The notes under the pieces were generated by a model. That model did not search any database. It was not told where the DNA came from and saw only the letters and a list, made by a program, of their open reading frames with translations. From a virus (Duplodnaviria > Heunggongvirae > Uroviricota > Caudoviricetes), in the IMG/VR virus record IMGVR_UViG_2609459823_000005: a stretch of DNA of 13,986 bases; one strand, given 5' to 3'. Positions 1,104 through 13,745 of this stretch are shown here, piece by piece; positions within the stretch are counted from its first letter, which is position 1, and each line of letters starts with the position of its first letter. The position numbers and the translations under genes are program-made.

Positions 1104-1192
1104 CCTTGTTTTTGAATCAATGCCCTGGCTTGAATTTTGCATGTCGGTGCCACAGTAACAACTCGCAAACGCAAAGTAGATGGAATAAACTC

Positions 1193-2281
1193 GTGAAAAT
1201 ATTGGTCACAGGTGGGGCAGGTTTTATTGGATCTGCTGTCGTCCGTAATATCATTAAGAATACTCAGGATTCTGTAGTTAATGTTGATAAATTAACCTAT
1301 GCGGGCAATCTTGAATCGCTGGTTGAAATCGAAAACAGCGCCCGTTATGCTTTTGAATGTGCAGACATTTGTGATGCTGAGGCGATGTCGCGTATTTTCG
1401 CCACTCACCAGCCTGATGCTGTTATGCATCTGGCTGCAGAAAGCCATGTAGATCGCTCGATCACCGGCCCTGCTGCTTTTATTGAGACAAATATCGTGGG
1501 CACCTATGTGCTGCTTGAAGCCGCACGTAAATACTGGTCTCAACTTGATGAAACAAGTAAAGCCGCGTTCCGCTTTCATCATATTTCAACGGACGAAGTC
1601 TACGGCGATTTGCCGCATCCTGATGAAGTCCCCGCTGGCACCGCCTTGCCGCTGTTTACCGAGAAAACCCCTTATTCTCCCAGCAGTCCGTATTCCTCAT
1701 CGAAAGCGTCAAGTGACCATTTAGTACGTGCATGGCGCCGTACTTACGGCTTGCCGACCCTGGTGACGAATTGCTCAAATAACTATGGCCCATACCATTT
1801 CCCTGAAAAACTTATTCCGCTGATCATTCTTAATGCATTAGCTGGTAAGCCGTTACCGGTGTATGGCAATGGCGAGCAAATTCGCGACTGGCTATTTGTT
1901 GAAGATCATGCACGCGCCTTATATAAGGTCGTCACTGAGGGGGTTGCGGGTGAGACTTACAATATCGGTGGTCACAATGAGCGTAAGAATATTGAAGTCG
2001 TAAATACTATTTGTACTATTCTGGACGAAATCATTACTGCGAAACCTAATAATATTAGTAGCTTTGCAGAATTAATTACTTATGTCACCGACCGTCCGGG
2101 CCATGATCTGCGTTACGCCATTGATGCGAGCAAAATAAAAGATGAACTGGGCTGGGTACCGCAGGAGACTTTTGAATCAGGTATCCGCAAAACGGTTGAA
2201 TGGTATTTGACTAACCAGGACTGGTGGCAGCGTGTGATGGATGGATCATATGCTGGTGAACGCCTGGGGCTCGCAGAATAA
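1193..2281 (+). CDS. rmlB: dTDP-glucose 4,6-dehydratase
   Basis: Preferred start is the in-frame GTG at 1193, giving [14 protein letters not shown] (Rossmann GxxGxxG) and a length of ~362 aa. The catalytic YSSSK (YxxxK) and other blocks ([21 protein letters not shown]) closely resemble E. coli RfbB as recalled. The track's ATG at 1106 is rejected because that extension overlaps JUMPStart/ops. Confidence 0.92.
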
Positions 2282-2296
2282 AATCGTAAGGACGGA

Positions 2297-3172
2297 ATGA
2301 TGAAAGGTATTGTATTAGCTGGCGGTTCTGGAACTCGTCTTTATCCGATTACTCAGGGTGTGTCAAAACAGTTATTGCCTGTTTATGACAAGCCGATGGT
2401 TTTTTACCCAATATCAGTTCTAATGTTGGCAGGTATTCGTGACATTTTGATTATCACGACGCCGGAAGATATGGCCGCGTTTCAACGCCTGTTGGGAGAC
2501 GGCTCTCAATTTGGTATTCGCCTTTCCTATACTGTCCAACCTTCGCCGGACGGTTTAGCGCAGGCATTTATTCTGGGTGAAGAGTTCATTAATAATGAAC
2601 CTTGTGCTCTGGTGCTGGGCGACAATATCTATTTTGGTCAGAGTTTTGGTAAAAAACTCGAGGTTGCCTCTCAGTTGACCCAAGGTGCGATGGTATTCGG
2701 TTATAAAGTACAGGATCCTGAGCGTTTTGGTGTGGTTGAATTTGATGCGAACTACAAGGCATTGTCCATTGAAGAAAAACCACAGAAGCCAAAATCCAGT
2801 TGGGCAGTAACCGGTCTCTATTTTTACGACAAAAACGTTGTGGAAATGGCGAAGCAAGTCAAACCATCTGCTCGCGGTGAACTCGAAATTACGACACTTA
2901 ACCAAATGTATCTTGAACGCGGTGAGCTTCAGGTAGAGTTGCTCGGACGTGGTTTCGCATGGCTTGACACCGGCACACATGACAGTCTGGTTGAGGCTTC
3001 ACAGTTTATTCATACCATTGAAAAAAGGCAGGGTATGAAAGTCGCTTGCCTTGAAGAGATTGCGTTTCGCAATGGATGGATCGGCAGAGAACAACTTTTA
3101 GCGCAGGCAAAACTGTTCAGCAAAAATGATTATGGTAAGTATCTAAAAGTATTGGCTGGAGAACATGAATGA
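2297..3172 (+). CDS. rmlA: glucose-1-phosphate thymidylyltransferase
   Basis: The N-terminus [16 protein letters not shown](x)[13 protein letters not shown] is the nucleotidyltransferase signature, and the ~290-aa protein closely resembles E. coli RfbA. There are tandem ATGs at 2297 and 2300; the RBS aaggacgg (2288-2295) favours 2300. The stop overlaps the rmlC start (ATGA at 3169-3172). Confidence 0.92.
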
Positions 3173-3705
3173 ACGTCATTGACACTAAAATAAGCGATGT
3201 GAAGATTATTGAGCCAAAAGTCTTTGGTGATGAACGAGGGTTCTTTTTAGAAACATTTGAAAAAAAGAGATATCAAACCCTTTTGAATATCGATATGGAT
3301 TTTGTACAGGATAACCACTCACGTTCCAGCAAAGGCGTACTTCGTGGGCTTCACTTTCAGCGCAATAATCCTCAGGGGAAACTTGTTCGAGTAGTTCGTG
3401 GCGAAGTGTTTGATGTTGCTGTTGATATTCGTAAAGACTCACCAACCTATGGGGTGTGGGAAGGTGTAATTTTGTCAGAAACGAATAAAAAGCAATTCTG
3501 GATCCCACCGGGACTTGCTCATGGTTTCCTGGTACTCTCGGATATTGCTGATTTCGAATATAAATGTACCGACTATTATGATAGCAGTAGTGAAGGCTGT
3601 TTAATCTGGAATGATGAGCAAGTTGGGATTGCATGGCCAGTAATAGACGCTGAGATTAAACTTTCAGCAAAAGATGCTGTTGGTAAGTTACTGCGTGACC
3701 TATAA
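3169..3705 (+). CDS. rmlC: dTDP-4-dehydrorhamnose 3,5-epimerase family protein (RmlC-like cupin)
   Basis: The 178-aa protein has [11 protein letters not shown], the catalytic His in VLRGLHFQ, the GKLVR lysine, [10 protein letters not shown] and a Tyr in FEYK, which is the RmlC fold signature. Whether it performs a full 3,5-epimerisation or a single epimerisation cannot be told from sequence. Confidence 0.8.
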
Positions 3706-3760: not shown

Positions 3761-4540
3761 GTGTTTAATAGTTTCATTCAAGGCCTGATAAATTATCGTG
3801 TTGTACTAAAACAATTAATAAGACAACAAGTAACGCTCAGGTATCGCAGAACAATGTTCGGTTTTTTATGGACCCTGCTTAATCCTCTTCTGAATATGGC
3901 AGTAATAGCGACTGTCTTTTCAATCGTAATGAAATTTCAGATAAGAGACTACGCCATTTTTCTCTTCTCTGCAGTTATTCCTTGGACTATGTTTTCAAAT
4001 ATCATTTCACAATGTTCTAATTCATTGATAGCAAATGAAAATCTATTTAAAAAAATATACTTACCAAAACAGATATTTATAACCGCTAGCGCAGTATCTG
4101 TTTTTATTGATTCGCTTCTGAGTACTATCTGTTTATTCATCATTGCATATTTCTTTGGCGCAAAATTAAGTTTGGCATTGATGTTTCTTCCAGTTTCATT
4201 TGCGATCTTATTTATATTCGCTTATGGTTTGGGTCTGATTTTTTCTGTAGTTTCTGTTTTTTTGCGCGACATGCAGTATCTGATCGGTGTGATTTTGCAA
4301 GCTCTATATTTTATGACCCCTATCATATATCCCGTTGATGCTGTTCCGGAACAGTACAAATGGGTTTTTGCATGGAATCCTATGTACTATTTTGTTGATT
4401 TATTTAGGGATCCAATCTACAACAATCAATTCCCTCCAGCTTATTCATTACAGCTTTGTGCGCTGACTGCCATTATTTCACTTTTGGTTGGTTTGTATGT
4501 ATTTAAAGTAAATGACAAAAAAATTATCTTCAGGTTGTAG
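3761..4540 (+). CDS. wzm: O-antigen/polysaccharide ABC transporter permease (ABC-2 family)
   Basis: The N-terminal motif LRYRRTMFGFLWTLLNPLL is typical of Wzm/KpsM, and the rest of the 259-aa protein is strongly hydrophobic with multiple predicted TM segments. Start is assigned to GTG 3761 with GAGG at 3747-3750; the ATG at 3854 would remove the conserved motif. The 3' end overlaps the wzt reading frame. Confidence 0.82.
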   Translation: MFNSFIQGLINYRVVLKQLIRQQVTLRYRRTMFGFLWTLLNPLLNMAVIATVFSIVMKFQIRDYAIFLFSAVIPWTMFSNIISQCSNSLIANENLFKKIYLPKQIFITASAVSVFIDSLLSTICLFIIAYFFGAKLSLALMFLPVSFAILFIFAYGLGLIFSVVSVFLRDMQYLIGVILQALYFMTPIIYPVDAVPEQYKWVFAWNPMYYFVDLFRDPIYNNQFPPAYSLQLCALTAIISLLVGLYVFKVNDKKIIFRL

Positions 4541-4541
4541 T

Positions 4542-5291
4542 ATGGAATCTAAAATTATTTTTAAAAATGTCTCTCTCGTATTTGATGAACATCAGCAACG
4601 AGGTCTGACGTTCAAAGAGTTATTTGCACGCACTCTCTCCGGTCGGAATAACGCTATAAAGGCGAATAAGAGAAAAGCTTTGGATTCAATAAGTATCGAG
4701 ATAAACCATGGAGAGCGAATCGGTATTGTCGGAAGCAATGGGGCAGGGAAAAGTACGTTCCTAAAAACACTTTGTCGTATTTATGAGCCAACCTCTGGTG
4801 AAATAAGCATATCAGGTAATATTGCACCGTTACTTGAGATTGGGGCTGGATTTAATCCAGAACTAAGCGGAAGAGAAAATATATATTTGAATGGTGCAAT
4901 TCTGGGCCATAGTATTTCTGAGCTTAAAAGTTTGGAAGCAGAAATTATTTCATTTTCAGAATTAAGTGAATATATTGATACACCTGTCAAATATTATTCA
5001 ACGGGCATGTATCTTAAATTAGCATTTTCAATTGCGACGGCAATCAAGCCTGATATTTTAGTTTTAGATGAACTGTTTGCTGGCGGTGACGCGGAATTTG
5101 TTGCTAAAGCTAAAAAAAGAATGGAACATTTCATCGCGGAATCAAGCATTATGTTTTTTGTATCTCATCAATTAGATTTGCTGCAGGAATTATGTACCCG
5201 CGTAATATGGATCGACCATGGTAAATTAATTGCTGATGGTGTACCAGACAAGGTAATTGAAGCATATTTGAATAAAGGTCATCATGATTAA
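4542..5291 (+). CDS. wzt: O-antigen/polysaccharide ABC transporter ATP-binding protein, short form without a C-terminal carbohydrate-binding domain
   Basis: Walker A GIVGSNGAGKST, ABC signature YSTGMYLKL, Walker B ILVLDELFAGGD and an H-loop (FFVSHQ) are all present. The track ORF begins at ATG 4512, but ATG 4542 (MESKIIFKNVSL) immediately follows the wzm stop and gives a typical N-terminus. At ~250 aa the protein is a nucleotide-binding domain only. Confidence 0.85.
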   Translation: MESKIIFKNVSLVFDEHQQRGLTFKELFARTLSGRNNAIKANKRKALDSISIEINHGERIGIVGSNGAGKSTFLKTLCRIYEPTSGEISISGNIAPLLEIGAGFNPELSGRENIYLNGAILGHSISELKSLEAEIISFSELSEYIDTPVKYYSTGMYLKLAFSIATAIKPDILVLDELFAGGDAEFVAKAKKRMEHFIAESSIMFFVSHQLDLLQELCTRVIWIDHGKLIADGVPDKVIEAYLNKGHHD

Positions 5292-6045
5292 TATTATAAT
5301 AGTCAGCCATCAAAATTTAGCTGACATTGATAAAATTCTCACAGAACTTGCGGGTGAAAATGATTATTATACTATTTATGTTCGTGACAATGTTGCTGAT
5401 GAGAATTTGAAGCGCCTTTGTTCTGATTATAACGTCTCATATTGTTCTGGTATTCGCCGAGAAGGCTTTGCCCTTAATAATAATATTGCTGCCGAAAAAG
5501 TATTACACTCATGTGAAATAGCTGATGATGATTATTTCCTGTTTATGAATCCTGATGCATATATTATTCGCGACGAGCTGATCAAACTCTCAACTATTTT
5601 GAGCGAAAAAAAATACGATATGTTCACTGTTGATCTGTATAGTAATGATGAATATACAATAAGAGATCCTTCCATTCGATATTTTCCAACGCTAAAAACA
5701 TTTCTATCTTCTTTTTTATTTGATACTAACAAAAGTATTATTAACAGGGATGCCATTCATCAAGATTTCGACCTGGATTGGTGTGCTAGCTCATTCTTTG
5801 GCGTTAAAGTTGGTTTGTTTAAAAGACTTAATGGCTTTGATTCCCGATTCTTTATGTATTGTGAAGATGTGGATATCTGTTACAGGGCTAAAAAATTAGG
5901 AGCCAAGCTTAGTTATATTGCAAATGTAAAAGCAATACACTACACTCAGAAAAATAGTAAAAAGATGCTCACTAAAAATTTTTATTGGCACGTTAAAAGT
6001 GCCATATTGTTTTTATGGAAAAAGCATACCCTGTCAAAAGGTTAA
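5284..6045 (+). CDS. GT2-family glycosyltransferase, WbbL-like dTDP-rhamnosyltransferase (candidate Rha to GlcNAc-PP-undecaprenol adaptor transferase)
   Basis: The 253-aa protein shares blocks with the E. coli WbbL rhamnosyltransferase as recalled from memory: IIIVSH, VRDN, DDDYFLFMNPDAY, DWCASSF, NGFD, FFMYCEDVDICYR, AIHY and WHVKS. The start overlaps the wzt stop by 8 bp. Confidence 0.6.
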   Translation: MINIIIVSHQNLADIDKILTELAGENDYYTIYVRDNVADENLKRLCSDYNVSYCSGIRREGFALNNNIAAEKVLHSCEIADDDYFLFMNPDAYIIRDELIKLSTILSEKKYDMFTVDLYSNDEYTIRDPSIRYFPTLKTFLSSFLFDTNKSIINRDAIHQDFDLDWCASSFFGVKVGLFKRLNGFDSRFFMYCEDVDICYRAKKLGAKLSYIANVKAIHYTQKNSKKMLTKNFYWHVKSAILFLWKKHTLSKG

Positions 6046-6050
6046 GATAA

Positions 6051-6944
6051 ATGTATTCTGTTGTGATGGGATTCCGCGAAAACTATAAACATTATGGGTA
6101 CACTACTCTTTTTTCTTTATTAACAAATAATAAAAACTCTTTTTTTTCAATCTATCTCCTTTCAGATAATCTGGATTTTGCATTTTTTAAAAAACTGGAG
6201 GATGTTTTTGCTTGCAAAATCATCCCTATTTCTATTTCGGCTGATCATATTGAAAATGTAAATTGTGGCTATCTTTCCTTTGGGACACTAATCCGCTTAT
6301 TAATCGGTGATTATCTTCCTGCTAATGTCGAAAAGGTTCTATACCTTGATGCTGATTTGATAATTGATGGCGATATTCATGAACTTCTTAATTATGAGTT
6401 AGGTTCACAGTATGCGGCAGTCGTAAGATCGAGTGCTCCTTATAAGCATCTCAAGGACATTAGGATAACATCCGAGCAGTACTTTAATGCGGGGGTGATA
6501 CTTTTTAATATGGAGATGTGTAGAAAAGATGATATTTTCATAAAAAGCCTTGATTTGTTAAAACGGAATAATTTTAAATATTTAGATCAAGATGCACTTA
6601 ATATTGCAATGGTAAACAATGTAAAATATGTTGATTCTAAATGGAATTTCGACTCATTTAGAGCAAAAACAATCTTACTTGATAGGAGTTATGCAAATAA
6701 ATACCCTGCAATAGCAATTTATCATTTTACAGGGCGTGACAAACCATGGTTTAAACATTGCATCAACCAGTATCAGAGTATTTATCTTCGTTATTTCGCT
6801 GAAATTCTAGGCTATGATGTTATCAATAATAAAAATAAATTTCAGTATTTTAAATTTAAACTGATTAAATTCTTATTCAGTAACTTTGTAACCCGTAAAA
6901 TTATTTACCATTTAAGAAACTATATTCGGACTAATATTCACTAA
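6051..6944 (+). CDS. GT8-family retaining glycosyltransferase (RfaJ/RfaI/LgtC-like; alpha-hexosyltransferase)
   Basis: GT8 hallmarks are present: the DxD motif in LYLDADLIIDGD, FNAGVILFN, YLDQDALN and the C-terminal HFTGRDKPW (H-x-x-G-x-x-KPW). Length is 297 aa and the donor sugar cannot be assigned from sequence. Confidence 0.75.
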   Translation: MYSVVMGFRENYKHYGYTTLFSLLTNNKNSFFSIYLLSDNLDFAFFKKLEDVFACKIIPISISADHIENVNCGYLSFGTLIRLLIGDYLPANVEKVLYLDADLIIDGDIHELLNYELGSQYAAVVRSSAPYKHLKDIRITSEQYFNAGVILFNMEMCRKDDIFIKSLDLLKRNNFKYLDQDALNIAMVNNVKYVDSKWNFDSFRAKTILLDRSYANKYPAIAIYHFTGRDKPWFKHCINQYQSIYLRYFAEILGYDVINNKNKFQYFKFKLIKFLFSNFVTRKIIYHLRNYIRTNIH

Positions 6945-6953
6945 GGACATTTT

Positions 6954-8333
6954 GTGGAGACTATACAAATAGCCACTGGAGTAAGTCGTAACTTCTTTGA
7001 CCCATTGAGTGTCATGCTTACTTCCTTGCTTGAAAATAATCAATCACATAAAATCAATTTTCATGTTTTGCACAGTGATTTTACGGATGATGATGAAGAA
7101 AAATTTAGCCTTTTGTTTACTAAATATGAAAACCTGGGGCTTAAATTCATCAAGTTAGATGAATCTAAATTAGAAGGGCTTCCCCTTCTGCAACATTTCA
7201 AGATCTCAACGTATTTTCGAATTCTGGCGCCAGCTGTTTTAAGTGAATATGATAAACTCCTTTATCTCGATGCCGACATTATTGTTGACAATGATATTCT
7301 GGAATTATGGCAGACCGATGTCACCAACTATACCCTCGCAGCAGTTCGTGAAGAGAGTATTGTCGCGTTAGATAAACGTTTGAGAATGCCTGCCAATTAT
7401 AAGTATTTCAATGCTGGTGTTGTTGTATTAAATAGTAAAAAAATTCGAGAAGAAAATAAGTTCGGTCCTGTTATCGATTATCTAAAAGAAAATATCAATG
7501 AGATCCTTTATCTTGATCAGGATGCTTTAAATGCTATTCTCTACGATGAATGGTTAGAAATAGACGAGAAATGGAATTATCATAATACCTTTATCCTGAA
7601 AAAAAATAATAACAAAGAGCATATCTTATTAGATAAACCAGTTATTATTCATTATACTGGTCCAGTCAAACCATGGGATGCGGAAAGTTCACATATATTT
7701 AAAAGCCGCTATTGGCATTACAAGAAAATATTAACAGGGAGTGTCGATGAAATTAAAGCTGGTTTTAACATACATAGTACGCTTGCTAAAAGAATAATAA
7801 AATATGCATATAGAGTTATTCTTTCCAATTATTATTTAAGAAAGCTGATTCTTAAAACAAATACATCATTAAAGCAGAGTGAGCATTTTGCGAAATATTA
7901 TTTTAAGTTTAAGGAACGTTTTGCTCCTGCACCTCAGATAATGTCGTCATTCGAAGCGAAGTTAGTTCAAGTTGATGTACCACTTCTAGAATCAACCATG
8001 GATTATGGTTTTTTCAGTATAAGGGAGTTCTTGAACTATATACAAATTTCTGGATATGTTTTCAAAAAAGAGTTTTCTGATAGAAATACTAATAAATATT
8101 TTGTCTTGAGAAACAGTGTCGACCCTAATTTGCTATATTGTTTTAAACTTAACAGTCATGACCATGTTTGGATTAATGATATATATAATGATGGTAATGA
8201 CTATTCAAAAAGTGGGTTCTTTAATTTCATCGGCAAAAGAGAGCTTAAAAGTGGAAGGTATGAAGTTGGATTAATCGTCCAAAATTCAAAAGGTGTACAT
8301 TATAAAATGACTGACACTACAGTAATTATTTGA
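6954..8333 (+). CDS. GT8-family glycosyltransferase with an extra ~190-aa C-terminal extension (two-domain protein)
   Basis: The N-terminal ~260 aa carry the GT8 motifs LYLDADIIVDND, FNAGVVVLN, YLDQDALN and HYTGPVKPW. The C-terminal portion has no GT8 similarity and contains a block (ISGYVF ... LKSGRYEV) that is also seen in the next protein. Start is GTG 6954 with RBS AAGGA at 6943-6947. Confidence 0.75.
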   Translation: METIQIATGVSRNFFDPLSVMLTSLLENNQSHKINFHVLHSDFTDDDEEKFSLLFTKYENLGLKFIKLDESKLEGLPLLQHFKISTYFRILAPAVLSEYDKLLYLDADIIVDNDILELWQTDVTNYTLAAVREESIVALDKRLRMPANYKYFNAGVVVLNSKKIREENKFGPVIDYLKENINEILYLDQDALNAILYDEWLEIDEKWNYHNTFILKKNNNKEHILLDKPVIIHYTGPVKPWDAESSHIFKSRYWHYKKILTGSVDEIKAGFNIHSTLAKRIIKYAYRVILSNYYLRKLILKTNTSLKQSEHFAKYYFKFKERFAPAPQIMSSFEAKLVQVDVPLLESTMDYGFFSIREFLNYIQISGYVFKKEFSDRNTNKYFVLRNSVDPNLLYCFKLNSHDHVWINDIYNDGNDYSKSGFFNFIGKRELKSGRYEVGLIVQNSKGVHYKMTDTTVII

Positions 8334-8343
8334 CGAGGAATCC

Positions 8344-9564
8344 ATGGATATTAAAATTTATTCGTCTTTTTATAAAAAATACTTCATTTATAAAAGCGAC
8401 ATTGTAGAACCTGTTTTTGTTGGTGCGGCCGAAAAGAATAATGATTTAGGCATCATTGGTGATGATACTGGCGATAATATTAGCGATAAAAACGGCACGT
8501 TCAATGAATTAACTTTAATTTATTGGGTCTGGAAAAATACTACAAATCAAGATTATGTAGGCTTCTGTCATTATAGAAGATATTTTATAAATAGAAGCAT
8601 CAGTAAATTTGAAAAAGCATTGCATCTTCTGATTCCACGCGATAAAGAGCGTAGAGAGCGTAAATTATTACGTTTGTTACAGCAGTTTGATAAAAATTGT
8701 GAATCCGAATTGAAAGGATTTGATATAGCGTTACCTAAGCCTATTGTTATGAATCGTACTTTGCGTGAACAATATGCTGATTATCATGATGGCGCGCATT
8801 ATGAGGAAATGGGTAAGGTTATTCGAGAATTACGTCCTGACATGTGGCCTGCTTACGAAGATGCGTCAAATCGAAATACTTTCTTCATCGCTAATATGTT
8901 CATTTTTAGCCGCAAGTATTTTGATCAATTTTGCGAGTTTGCCTTTCCGGTTCTTTTTGAACTAGAGAAAAGGTTAGAAGTGCCGGATGATATGTATCAA
9001 AAACGTATTTTTGGATACTTAGGTGAGCGGTTGGTAACAATCTTTGTAAATTATTTATATCAACAAAAGAATGTTAAATTCAAATATTTTGATCTATTAA
9101 ATACTGATGTTATTTTTTCAAATTACAAATCGTATCTAACCGAAAAAAAATTAATAAGCAGTAAAAATAAAAACTACGTCACTTTTGGTGCTGTTGATAA
9201 TCTAATCAAAATGTCAAACAATTTTTACTGCATGAATGGTTGGGTTATAATTAAAGATCGCGAATCCTATAATGTTACGGTTCAAATTGAGTTATATAGT
9301 GATGAAAACACTATTATGCTTAATAGCGAAAGACAGGATCGGCCTGATGTAACCCGGCACTTTATCAATGTTCATGATGGGTACGTTAATTACGATAATT
9401 GCGGCTATTACACTAGTTTTAAATGTGATGAGATTAAAAGTGGTGAATATAAAATTAAGTTTCATGCATTTGATAAAATAGAGAAAACAACTTCAATTTT
9501 TTATGTTTATGACTGTTTTTTAAAGAAACATAAAAATGAAGTTGAGCTTGTGAGGTTACCATGA
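8344..9564 (+). CDS. DUF4422-type putative glycosyltransferase (WbbI/WbbM-N-like, candidate galactofuranosyltransferase) with a C-terminal extension
   Basis: The motifs ELTLIYWVWKN, VGFCHYRRYF and GYLGERLVTIF match my recollection of the DUF4422 family, which includes known Galf-transferases; this is not verified by a profile search. The C-terminal ~110 aa (NGWVI ... IKSGEYKI) resemble the C-terminus of the preceding protein. RBS GAGGA at 8335-8339; the stop overlaps the glf start (ATGA). Confidence 0.6.
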   Translation: MDIKIYSSFYKKYFIYKSDIVEPVFVGAAEKNNDLGIIGDDTGDNISDKNGTFNELTLIYWVWKNTTNQDYVGFCHYRRYFINRSISKFEKALHLLIPRDKERRERKLLRLLQQFDKNCESELKGFDIALPKPIVMNRTLREQYADYHDGAHYEEMGKVIRELRPDMWPAYEDASNRNTFFIANMFIFSRKYFDQFCEFAFPVLFELEKRLEVPDDMYQKRIFGYLGERLVTIFVNYLYQQKNVKFKYFDLLNTDVIFSNYKSYLTEKKLISSKNKNYVTFGAVDNLIKMSNNFYCMNGWVIIKDRESYNVTVQIELYSDENTIMLNSERQDRPDVTRHFINVHDGYVNYDNCGYYTSFKCDEIKSGEYKIKFHAFDKIEKTTSIFYVYDCFLKKHKNEVELVRLP

Positions 9565-10730
9565 TTAGTTATGATTACATTATTGTAGGCTGCGGTCTTT
9601 CTGGTATTGTTCTGGCAAATAATATTGCTGAGAAATTAAATAAAAAAGTGCTTATTATTGAGAAGCGCGATCATATCGGAGGAAACTGTTACGATTACTA
9701 TGATGAACATGGTGTCCTTGTACATAAATATGGTCCGCATATTTTCCATACAAATTATAAAGATGTCTATGACTACCTTGATCAATTCACTGAATGGTAT
9801 GTTTATCAGTTCCAGGCACGAACACTGATTGATGGTAAAAAAACATTTTTGCCCTTCAACCTGAACACGATGAAGGATATTCTTGACGAGCATTTATATG
9901 ACAAGATATCTAAAAAACTCATCGAAGTTTATGGTTATGATAAAACCGTACCTATTTTCGAGTTAAAAAAATCAGAGGATGAAACCATCCAATGGTTGGT
10001 TGACTATATTTACGATAAAGTCTATGTGAACTATATCGCTAAACAATGGGACATGAAACCCGAAGACCTCGACAAGAGTGTGCTTGAACGTGTTCCCGTA
10101 TATATTTCTCGCGATAATCGATATTTCAAAGACAAATATCAAGTTATGCCACGAGACGGTTATACGGTTATGTTCAACCGGATGTTGGCAAACAAAAACA
10201 TACATGTTCTGTTGAATGCTAATGCAGACGATTTTGTCACGCTGACCGATAAGCATGAAGTTCACTTCATGGGCAAGCCATTTGAAGGCAAGTTGATTTA
10301 CACCGGTCAGATTGATCATCTTTTCAATTATAAATTTGGCGAGTTACCTTATCGTTCCTTGCGCTTTGATTTTGTTAATTACAAAAAAGAGTTCTTCCAG
10401 GAAGTGGCTATGGTTAGCTACCCAAATAATTATGATTTCACTCGTATTACGGAAAGTAAGCATTTGACCGGGCAGGATTGCAAAACGACCACTGTTGTTT
10501 ATGAATATCCCCAGAATTATGATCGTAATGATCCTATCAAAGATGTACCTTATTATCCTGTGCCAAGAGCCGATAACCATGAACTTTATGCAAAATATTC
10601 AGAGCTTGCTGGTAAGTATAAATCTTTGATACTGGTTGGTCGTTTAGCTCAATACAAGTACTACAACATGGATCAGATGATCAAAGTTGCCCTTGATACA
10701 TTTAAAGAAATTCAAGCTGGAGAAAAGTAA
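9561..10730 (+). CDS. glf: UDP-galactopyranose mutase family flavoprotein (NDP-hexopyranose mutase)
   Basis: The N-terminal FAD-binding YDYIIVGCGLSGIVLAN ... KKVLIIEKRDHIGGNCY and HKYGPHIFHTN closely parallel E. coli K-12 Glf as recalled, with conserved blocks throughout the 389 aa. A dTDP-fucopyranose mutase (Fcf2-like) cannot be excluded from sequence alone. Confidence 0.85.
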   Translation: MISYDYIIVGCGLSGIVLANNIAEKLNKKVLIIEKRDHIGGNCYDYYDEHGVLVHKYGPHIFHTNYKDVYDYLDQFTEWYVYQFQARTLIDGKKTFLPFNLNTMKDILDEHLYDKISKKLIEVYGYDKTVPIFELKKSEDETIQWLVDYIYDKVYVNYIAKQWDMKPEDLDKSVLERVPVYISRDNRYFKDKYQVMPRDGYTVMFNRMLANKNIHVLLNANADDFVTLTDKHEVHFMGKPFEGKLIYTGQIDHLFNYKFGELPYRSLRFDFVNYKKEFFQEVAMVSYPNNYDFTRITESKHLTGQDCKTTTVVYEYPQNYDRNDPIKDVPYYPVPRADNHELYAKYSELAGKYKSLILVGRLAQYKYYNMDQMIKVALDTFKEIQAGEK

Positions 10731-11662
10731 TGAAGACTATTTTAATTGTTGGTGGTTCTGGCTTCATGGGTGCGAATTTTACTGAATACTTTGTTGCGAA
10801 AGGCTACAAGGTTATTAGCTTCAGTAATTCACCAACCCGTATCCAGCATGAAAATGTGGTAAATGTTTGCGGTGATAGCCGTGATGCCGAAGCTATTAAT
10901 GAAATTTTTGTTAATCACAAAATTGATTTGGTTGTTTTTACGTTGACGAGTTTTTGGGTGGTTGATGGGGTGAGCTCCTATCAAGATTTGACCGCCATTA
11001 ACCTGACTGCGTTTATCGATGTACTGAATATCATGAAGCGTCACAATGTTAATGAAGTGATTTACATCTCTTCTGGTGGCTCTATCTATGGAGAGTCCGA
11101 TAAGCCGATTCCGGAAGATTCACCGCTCTGCCCGGTCAGTTTTTATGGCTGGATCAAAGAAGCGGCAGAAAGCTATCTTAAATATGAAGCCCGTATTAAT
11201 CCCCATTTGCGCTATCTTGTATTTCGTCCTTCCAATGTTTACGGAAAATATCAGCAGCTCAACCGCATCATTGGTGTAGCGCTTAAAAATACACATTTGG
11301 ACATCCCAATGAATATTTATGGTGGTGCGGATACGAAGAAAGACTATATTTATATCGATGATTTCTGTGAGATCATCTTTAATATCTTGAATAAAAATGT
11401 CTGGAACGAAACGTACAATATTGGTTCTGGTGTCGGAACCAGCATTCGAGAAATTCTGGATCTTGCTCAGGAAGTTGTGAATAAGCCACTTGCTGTTGAG
11501 TATGGAAAACAGAAAGAGGGTGATATCAGTTATAGCGTATTAGATGTTGAGAAAGTTAAGGCTGTAACTGGTAAGCAAAGCTTCACCAACGTCAAAGACG
11601 GCATGCGTAAAATGTATCCGTACGTTGTCGAAGAACTGGCACGTCTGGCAGCGAAGGCCTAA
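10730..11662 (+). CDS. NAD(P)-dependent epimerase/dehydratase (extended SDR) family protein; candidate nucleotide-sugar 4-reductase or 4-epimerase
   Basis: Rossmann motif IVGGSGFMGANF at the N-terminus and catalytic YGWIK (YxxxK) preceded by ISSGGS. Length is 310 aa and the start overlaps the glf stop (TAATG). Precise activity is not assignable by eye. Confidence 0.7.
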   Translation: MKTILIVGGSGFMGANFTEYFVAKGYKVISFSNSPTRIQHENVVNVCGDSRDAEAINEIFVNHKIDLVVFTLTSFWVVDGVSSYQDLTAINLTAFIDVLNIMKRHNVNEVIYISSGGSIYGESDKPIPEDSPLCPVSFYGWIKEAAESYLKYEARINPHLRYLVFRPSNVYGKYQQLNRIIGVALKNTHLDIPMNIYGGADTKKDYIYIDDFCEIIFNILNKNVWNETYNIGSGVGTSIREILDLAQEVVNKPLAVEYGKQKEGDISYSVLDVEKVKAVTGKQSFTNVKDGMRKMYPYVVEELARLAAKA

Positions 11663-13364: not shown

Positions 13365-13745
13365 TTACTTACGGCCCGTAAACGGGCTGCCCGGATAGGG
13401 AATCGATAACTGCTCTCCCATTTTATCCTCTTCAAGCTGGTGCTTTATGTAATCCTGTATCTTCGCCGTGTTCTTACCCATCGTATCGACGTAATACCCT
13501 CTGCACCAGAACTCCCTGTTCCTGTATTTGAATTTCAAATCACCAAACTGCTCGTAAAGCATCAGACTGCTTTTCCCTTTCAGATATCCCATAAAGCCTG
13601 ATACGCTCATTTTGGGCGGGATCTCCACAAGCATATGGATATGATCTGCACAGCATTCAGCTTCCAGAATCCGTACACTTTTCCACTCACACAGCTTTCT
13701 CAAAATACTGCCTGTTGCTCTACGCTTCTCTCTGTAGAACACCTG
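13365..13745 (-). pseudogene. tnpA: IS200/IS605-family (IS200-like) transposase tnpA, 5'-truncated by IS1 insertion
   Basis: The minus-strand ORF encodes FYREKRRATGSILRKLCEWKSVRILEAECCADHIHMLVEIPPK ... YPGSPFTGRK, which matches IS200 TnpA as recalled, including the HuH motif (HIHML). About 27 N-terminal codons are missing; the match stops at 13745, where IS1 sequence begins. Confidence 0.85.

Follow-up and report, generated by a model that had tools for sequence, protein, structure and literature searches.

The 13,986-bp stretch of DNA analysed here (the window; IMG/VR record IMGVR_UViG_2609459823_000005) holds an O-antigen gene cluster of Escherichia coli, of the ATP-binding cassette (ABC) transporter type, with insertion-sequence genes at both ends. 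We find that two adjacent glycosyltransferases encoded in it, a GT8 protein and a DUF4422 (GT111-type) protein, end in homologous copies of one domain. This domain is a member of a widespread repeat family unmodelled by Pfam and NCBIfam, and both copies are predicted to fold as an immunoglobulin-like (Ig-like) beta-sandwich. Since each of the two proteins matches one module of the Klebsiella polymerase WbbM, the pair looks like a split version of that enzyme, in which the Ig-like domains may act on the growing polymer, on enzyme assembly or on both.

Homology of the two C-terminal domains

Genes were called from the list of open reading frames (ORFs) and from Pfam matches across the window. 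The GT8 and DUF4422 ORFs lie 10 nt apart, with the GT8 gene first and the GT111 gene second, and both they and the sequence motifs reported for them in an initial annotation of the window are correctly placed. The encoded proteins have a common layout, in which an acidic or neutral catalytic domain is followed by a strongly basic linker and a near-neutral Ig-like domain:

6954-8333, + strand: GT8 protein with C-terminal extension, 459 residues; Glyco_transf_8 (PF01501) at residues 6-243, E = 3.7e-51
7689-7973, + strand: basic, aromatic-rich linker of the GT8 protein, residues 246-340; net charge +13, isoelectric point (pI) 10.1
7998-8312, + strand: predicted Ig-like beta-sandwich ('GW-type' repeat family), copy 1, GT8 residues 349-453
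8344-9564, + strand: DUF4422 (GT111-type) protein with C-terminal extension, 406 residues; PF14393 at residues 4-236, E = 3.6e-61
9064-9195, + strand: basic linker of the DUF4422 protein, residues 241-284; net charge +5, pI 9.7
9205-9561, + strand: predicted Ig-like beta-sandwich, copy 2, DUF4422 residues 288-406; profile match at residues 288-374, then strands and tail

The phmmer match of the GT8 protein to LgtC runs to residue 298, and the linker continues the LgtC-like C-terminus. From its composition, this linker is probably a helical membrane-association element.

The initial annotation had proposed that the two tails are homologous on the basis of shared, ordered motifs. Pairwise comparison alone is insufficient to establish this. 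BLASTP of the GT8 protein against the DUF4422 protein aligns just 23 residues around the KSG.Y motif (E = 0.12), and under a shuffling control the Smith-Waterman alignment of the tails is marginal, beating 97.5-98.7% of 2000 shuffles (p about 0.013-0.025), with p = 0.06 for longer segments. Values of this kind are what one might expect if the resemblance consisted of chance short motifs in two AT-rich genes with no common domain. Because the pairwise evidence is weak, independent relatives were sought by an exhaustive phmmer search with GT8 residues 335-459 against 1.84 billion representative proteins, which returned 50 proteins at E <= 1e-3. They include a 64%-identical orthologue from a cluster that also contains a Franconibacter helveticus protein; the rest are almost entirely metagenome proteins, unnamed or labelled 'hypothetical', that carry one to four tandem copies of a repeat of ~100 residues. 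A profile built from 123 repeat copies matches residues 288-374 of the DUF4422 protein with 55.8 bits.

As a clean control, we used a profile of third-party copies only, from which both window proteins and their close orthologues had been removed. It scores 69.9 bits on the GT8 protein (residues 349-451) and 57.1 bits on the DUF4422 protein (residues 288-373), against a maximum of 15.3 bits for 4000 shuffled tails. The remaining window proteins, the two other glycosyltransferases among them, all score 1.2 bits or less; the second GT8 protein (6051-6944) scores -0.1 bits, and the GT2-like ORF (5284-6045) gives no match even at E <= 1000. An hhalign result of 99.7% probability is not relied on, as the alignment contained the target. 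The motif pairs share profile columns, with ISGYVF and MNGWVI on 'isGWAfik', the Asp-Gly pair on 'kdgl', and LKSGRYEV and IKSGEYKI on 'lkkGkYqig'. Because the third-party profile scores both tails far above shuffled sequences, the two are confirmed as homologous copies of one domain. Together with both structure predictions described below, these scores refute a coincidence of short motifs, a reading that is now practically out of the question.

A single homologous accessory module on two catalytically unrelated glycosyltransferases, as the initial annotation had it, is thus borne out by profile and fold evidence; its length is ~105 residues rather than 95. The domain spans residues ~349-453 of the GT8 protein and ~285-385 of the DUF4422 protein, where further strand(s) extend to residue 406, and each protein has a single profile match. 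We rejected a recent in-cluster duplication as the origin of the two copies because they are only 17% identical to each other, yet each is 31-34% identical to third-party copies; within the family they are each other's most or nearly most distant relative (rank 71/71 and 59/71).

Fold, family and distribution of the domain

AlphaFold2 models made with a 72-sequence alignment of the domain have a predicted local distance difference test score (pLDDT) of 93.7 for GT8 residues 341-459 and 91.2 for DUF4422 residues 280-406. Both contain five strands, a short helix and three strands, with an additional C-terminal strand in the DUF4422 copy, and both have the same best match in the PDB. The predicted structures therefore agree on a common beta-sandwich with the same order of elements. 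Foldseek searches with the tail models gave nothing at E <= 1e-3, and the best TM-scores, 0.52-0.58, were to accessory domains of OgpA/Amuc_1438 and to TarS. As modelled, the fold is a generic Ig/FN3/carbohydrate-binding module (CBM)-like sandwich to which no solved structure is close, and searching the PDB with a sequence profile returned nothing.

Pfam has no model that matches the domain in the tails at E <= 10, a search in which most matches above about 0.1 are lost to HMMER filters, and there is no NCBIfam model for it. A word-index homologue search, run in turn with either tail and the alignment of the domain as query, found just one partial Cronobacter protein. Genome contigs searched with the DUF4422 protein alone, and metagenome contigs searched with an alignment of the GT8-type tail, gave no hits. 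The family consensus reads ..GWAF..(8-12)..vvLKS...Y.F.T....R.DV...F....ld.SGF...I.k..L..G.Y.iGi.., and its 'GW-type' motifs, G-W/Y, the (R.DV)-helix, SGF/CGY and G.Y.(I/V), keep their order and spacing in both window copies. The DUF4422 copy is canonical (GW, RPDV); in the GT8 copy GY replaces GW and HDHVW replaces R.DV.

Elsewhere the domain belongs mostly to membrane-anchored proteins. A signal anchor or a polytopic topology is present in 39 of the 50 representative family members, and the commonest carrier in 42 metagenome loci is a small protein that has a single transmembrane segment at its N-terminus and carries one to three copies. This small carrier lies directly downstream (within about 20 nt) of a polytopic membrane protein of ~480-515 residues with sulfatase/LtaS-like motifs (PDIYFIILDEYA ... 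SDHG) and no Pfam hit. The two genes, one for the LtaS-like polytopic protein and one for the Ig-like-domain protein with its single transmembrane segment, recur as a conserved module in metagenome contigs:

L101, 6231-7760 / 7779-8309: two-gene module
L108, 4141-5682 / 5701-6234 and 6537-7814 / 7833-8339: two-gene module
L113, L088, L090, L105, L117, L118 and L119: two-gene module, likewise

The domain also occurs fused to an AlgX-type SGNH acetyltransferase, a GT-C PMT_2 glycosyltransferase, a ConA-like lectin and a DUF268 methyltransferase-like domain, with a weak match for a fusion to a radical-SAM/SPASM domain. The family is a promiscuous accessory module, mostly of glycan-active or envelope proteins and usually outside the cytoplasm. 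Neither the E. coli GT8 protein nor the DUF4422 protein has hydrophobic segments, so the domain in these enzymes must be cytoplasmic, as judged from sequence. It is not a general feature of GT111 enzymes, since no ORF in 80 GTDB loci encoding DUF4422 relatives (30-38% identity) carries a copy. An orthologous cluster in Cronobacter turicensis has the domain on both proteins.

Between E. coli and Cronobacter, amino acid identity of the DUF4422 protein is 78% in the catalytic part and 61% in the domain. Measured on DNA, the domain has a pN (non-synonymous) of 0.22 against a pS (synonymous) of 0.75, which is saturated, and it is thus under purifying selection. For the GT8 copy, the comparison is of amino acid identity only, which is 66-69%. 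Against the 64%-identical orthologue, identity is 66% in the domain, 87% in the catalytic part and 54% in the linker. The GT8 domain holds a nearly invariant stretch, FKLNS.DHVWINDIY.DGNDYSKSGFFNFIGK. The C-terminal tail of the DUF4422 protein (9484-9561, residues 381-406), which lies beyond the profile match, is more conserved than the domain (81% vs 61%), and it ends in ELVRLP, six residues that E. coli and Cronobacter share without change. This extreme C-terminus could be a partner-binding or strand-addition element.

A putative split polymerase and the role of its Ig-like domains

ABC-transporter-dependent O-antigen polymerases are usually multi-module proteins. WbbM of Klebsiella pneumoniae is the bifunctional polymerase of the O2a galactan, D-galactan I, with a GT111 galactofuranose (Galf) and a GT8 galactopyranose (Galp) transferase (PMC12269835, PMC11231755), and both of its catalytic modules have homologues in the window. 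DUF4422 residues 3-257 match the N-terminal module of WbbM (PDB 6u4b, residues 29-286) with E = 2.9e-32, and GT8 residues 35-247 match its GT8 module (6u4b, residues 334-574) with E = 1.4e-18. The GT8 protein scores higher against LgtC and 3tzt than against WbbM, so orthology on that side is loose. Because each protein matches one module, the pair looks like a split WbbM with reversed gene order: WbbM is one polypeptide with GT111 followed by GT8, whereas the window encodes two proteins, GT8 and then GT111. The two would supply GT111 Galf- and GT8 Galp-transferase activities and act as an alternating polymerase, activities that we infer from these matches. The neighbouring glf gene, whose product would supply UDP-Galf to the GT111-type enzyme, and the CBM-less transporter give this reading a supporting context, and the Klebsiella O2a cluster likewise contains wzm, a CBM-less wzt and glf (PMC11231755, PMC12269835). 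Unlike WbbM, which at 606 residues has no room for a domain of ~105 residues, each window protein adds a basic linker and an Ig-like domain.

The closest functional parallels come from teichoic-acid glycosyltransferases. Staphylococcus aureus TarS (5u02/5tz8) and Listeria monocytogenes RmlT (8bz4) also have an Ig-like sandwich after a cytoplasmic GT-A domain that acts on a lipid-linked polymer, and the predicted models place a sandwich structurally similar to TarS C1/C2 C-terminal to the GT-A domain here. The C-terminal CBM-like domains of TarS trimerise the enzyme and raise its affinity for poly-ribitol-phosphate and its processivity (PMC5156392); the oligomerisation domain of RmlT dimerises the enzyme and lines the proposed polymer path (PMC11697029). 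In both enzymes, then, such domains bring the subunits together and also play a part in holding the acceptor polymer and in processivity (PMC5156392, PMC11697029). The systems differ in that TarS has tandem C1 and C2 domains and RmlT an oligomerisation domain plus a turret, against one domain here; in catalytic family (GT2 vs GT8/GT111); and in acceptor (poly-ribitol-phosphate vs an O-antigen glycan).

By this analogy, we put the probability at roughly 0.5 that the Ig-like domain is a TarS/RmlT-like module that tethers the polymer acceptor and/or aids assembly of the split polymerase; a combined role is proposed because the TarS and RmlT domains do both. Each window protein would consist of a catalytic domain, a basic membrane-associating linker and an Ig-like domain that works like the C-terminal CBM-like domains of TarS and RmlT. 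The domain would form a secondary binding track for the growing glycan linked to undecaprenyl pyrophosphate, and would probably also offer a surface for self- or hetero-association. The chain would thereby stay with the enzyme pair during alternating addition of Galf and Galp, and the Ig-like domains would stand in for the covalent link between the modules of WbbM. The glycan context of the family, with its fusions to AlgX-type SGNH, GT-C PMT_2 and ConA-like lectin domains, supports this proposal, as do the specificity of the domain for the split pair, with none in the 80 other DUF4422 loci and no room in WbbM, and the retention of both copies in Cronobacter turicensis. The earlier suggestion of a carbohydrate-binding or partner-docking module fits the Ig-like/CBM-like fold and the fusions to glycan enzymes; either role may apply.

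Several observations weigh against the TarS/RmlT analogy. The profile search of the PDB connected the domain by sequence to neither TarS nor any other PDB chain, and TarS has two tandem domains where the window proteins have one each. Of the 50 family members, the 39 that are anchored or polytopic probably hold the domain outside the cytoplasm; in the window proteins it must be cytoplasmic, so the ligand may differ. The window copies are so divergent, at 17% identity and at the far end of the family ranking, that the two need not bind the same thing.

That same divergence would suit a heterotypic interface, and it bears on a doubtful alternative in which the domain is purely a protein-protein assembly module whose hetero- or homo-oligomers build a non-covalent WbbM-like complex with no glycan binding. 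The closest folds are the parts of TarS and RmlT through which those enzymes oligomerise (PMC5156392, PMC11697029). Within the cluster the domain is confined to the two enzymes that WbbM joins in one chain and is missing from the other two glycosyltransferases, and Cronobacter keeps both copies together; these points speak for a role in assembly alone. Against it, the domain occurs elsewhere as one to four copies in tandem on one secreted or anchored protein, and on enzymes that act on glycans, a pattern better known from modules that bind ligands or serve as spacers than from a dedicated dimerisation domain. A bolder version of the tether-and-assembly proposal, which we consider unlikely, is that the domain is a new carbohydrate-binding/assembly module whose divergent copies heterodimerise and so rebuild a WbbM-like bifunctional polymerase holding the nascent Galf/Galp chain. 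If true, this would be a natural 'split-polymerase' solution for controlling processivity and chain length in an ABC-transporter pathway that has neither a terminator nor a CBM.

It is very unlikely, in our estimate, that the domain instead docks the polymerase halves to Wzm-Wzt, to adaptor glycosyltransferases or to the membrane, thereby setting the polymerase:transporter stoichiometry that governs chain length. The O2a-type pathway has no terminator and chain length follows the stoichiometry of transporter to polymerase or biosynthesis complex; WbbM interacts with adaptor glycosyltransferases in Klebsiella O2a (PMC11231755). Such docking would be in line with these findings and with the CBM-less Wzt of the window, but the family occurs in many contexts without an ABC transporter, and the basic, aromatic character expected of a membrane anchor is carried by the linkers while the domains are near neutral, so that the Ig-like domain itself is unlikely to be a membrane anchor.

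Two further systems invite comparison. The C-terminal carbohydrate-binding domain of Wzt (PF14524) is likewise an accessory beta-sandwich in cytoplasmic ABC-transporter O-antigen machinery and recognises the glycan; it is carried by the nucleotide-binding domain, unlike the window domain, which is on glycosyltransferases. Wzt_C does not match either window tail at E <= 10, in a search where HMMER filters remove the majority of matches above about 0.1, and no Wzt structure is among the top fold matches. One third-party family member has a sub-threshold Wzt_C match (22.3 bits over 35 residues, cut-off 30.4). With this hit alone and no Wzt fold match, membership of the domain in Wzt_C was not adopted, but the two may be remotely homologous. 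The initial annotation was right that the Wzt of the window lacks a carbohydrate-binding domain of its own, as the protein is short and its sole Pfam match is ABC_tran, with no Wzt_C. The idea that the glycosyltransferase domains compensate for this absence is weakened, because CBM-less transporters are normal in the Klebsiella O2a-type pathway (PMC11231755). The second system is the K. pneumoniae O7 terminator ORF6, for which an Ig-like 'CBM' was predicted, noted once and not studied (PMC11231755). It too would be an Ig-like CBM-type domain on a cytoplasmic enzyme of ABC-transporter O-antigen assembly; ORF6 is a methyltransferase-kinase terminator with a coiled coil, not a polymerase glycosyltransferase.

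Ig/CBM-like accessory domains on polymer-acting GT-A enzymes are thus already known. New here are the unmodelled sequence family, its location on GT8 and GT111 O-antigen polymerase modules and its presence on both halves of a split polymerase. For the question of how separate single-module glycosyltransferases work together on the same chain, the cluster can be set against the fused WbbM as a natural counterpart. With the same catalytic modules split and each provided with an Ig-like domain, the idea of chain tethering or assembly is directly testable. The family, with 50 representative clusters at E <= 1e-3, could enter domain databases and is a candidate new CBM family.

Other genes of the cluster

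The remaining genes called in the window are:

25-732: IS3-type integrase fragment
1106-2281: rmlB
2297-3172: rmlA
3169-3705: rmlC
3761-4540, + strand: wzm, Pfam ABC2_membrane
4512-5291, + strand: wzt, short, Pfam ABC_tran only
5284-6045, + strand: GT2-like gene with sub-threshold GT2 matches
6051-6944, + strand: plain GT8, the second in the cluster, 297 residues, called from Pfam
9561-10730, + strand: glf (UDP-galactopyranose mutase), Pfam GLF, E = 3.1e-68
10730-11662: epimerase/reductase of the short-chain dehydrogenase/reductase (SDR) type, 310 residues
11863-13233: gnd
13365-13742, minus strand: IS200-type transposase

The wzt ORF encodes 259 residues and overlaps wzm by 29 nt (4512-4541); Wzt as annotated in related contigs has 249 residues and begins 30 nt downstream. 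In the ORF list rmlB has 391 residues from a TTG start and is annotated elsewhere as 362 residues. The rmlB/rmlA/rmlC set (1106-3705) is without rmlD in the cluster. The top NCBIfam match of the SDR protein encoded after glf is GalE-like, at 118 bits and below the cut-off, and the rmlD model scores 41 bits; this protein is a candidate for the absent 4-reductase, such as one for L-rhamnose or 6-deoxy-L-talose. The 253-residue GT2-like protein encoded upstream of the GT8 genes has GT2 matches of 24.0 and 22.1 bits, both under the gathering scores, and no Pfam hit is recorded for it in the annotations of related contigs. It may be a divergent GT-A enzyme.

The annotations of many E. coli draft genomes contain exact copies of the GT8 and DUF4422 proteins, and megablast found no match to 6954-9564 among 5,426 complete E. 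coli genomes and none to 3761-11662 among PLSDB plasmids. A central G+C content of 31-35% (4-10 kb) against 45-51% at the flanks, together with the insertion-sequence genes at either end, suggests that the cluster as a whole was acquired horizontally. The syntenic orthologous cluster in Cronobacter turicensis adjoins gnd and the his operon. Some E. coli drafts have the cluster near a PsiB-type gene (contig L004, 1805-1975) or near IS66 and a primase-helicase gene (contig L001, 14596-19376), and in those strains it may be carried by a mobile element or lie next to one.

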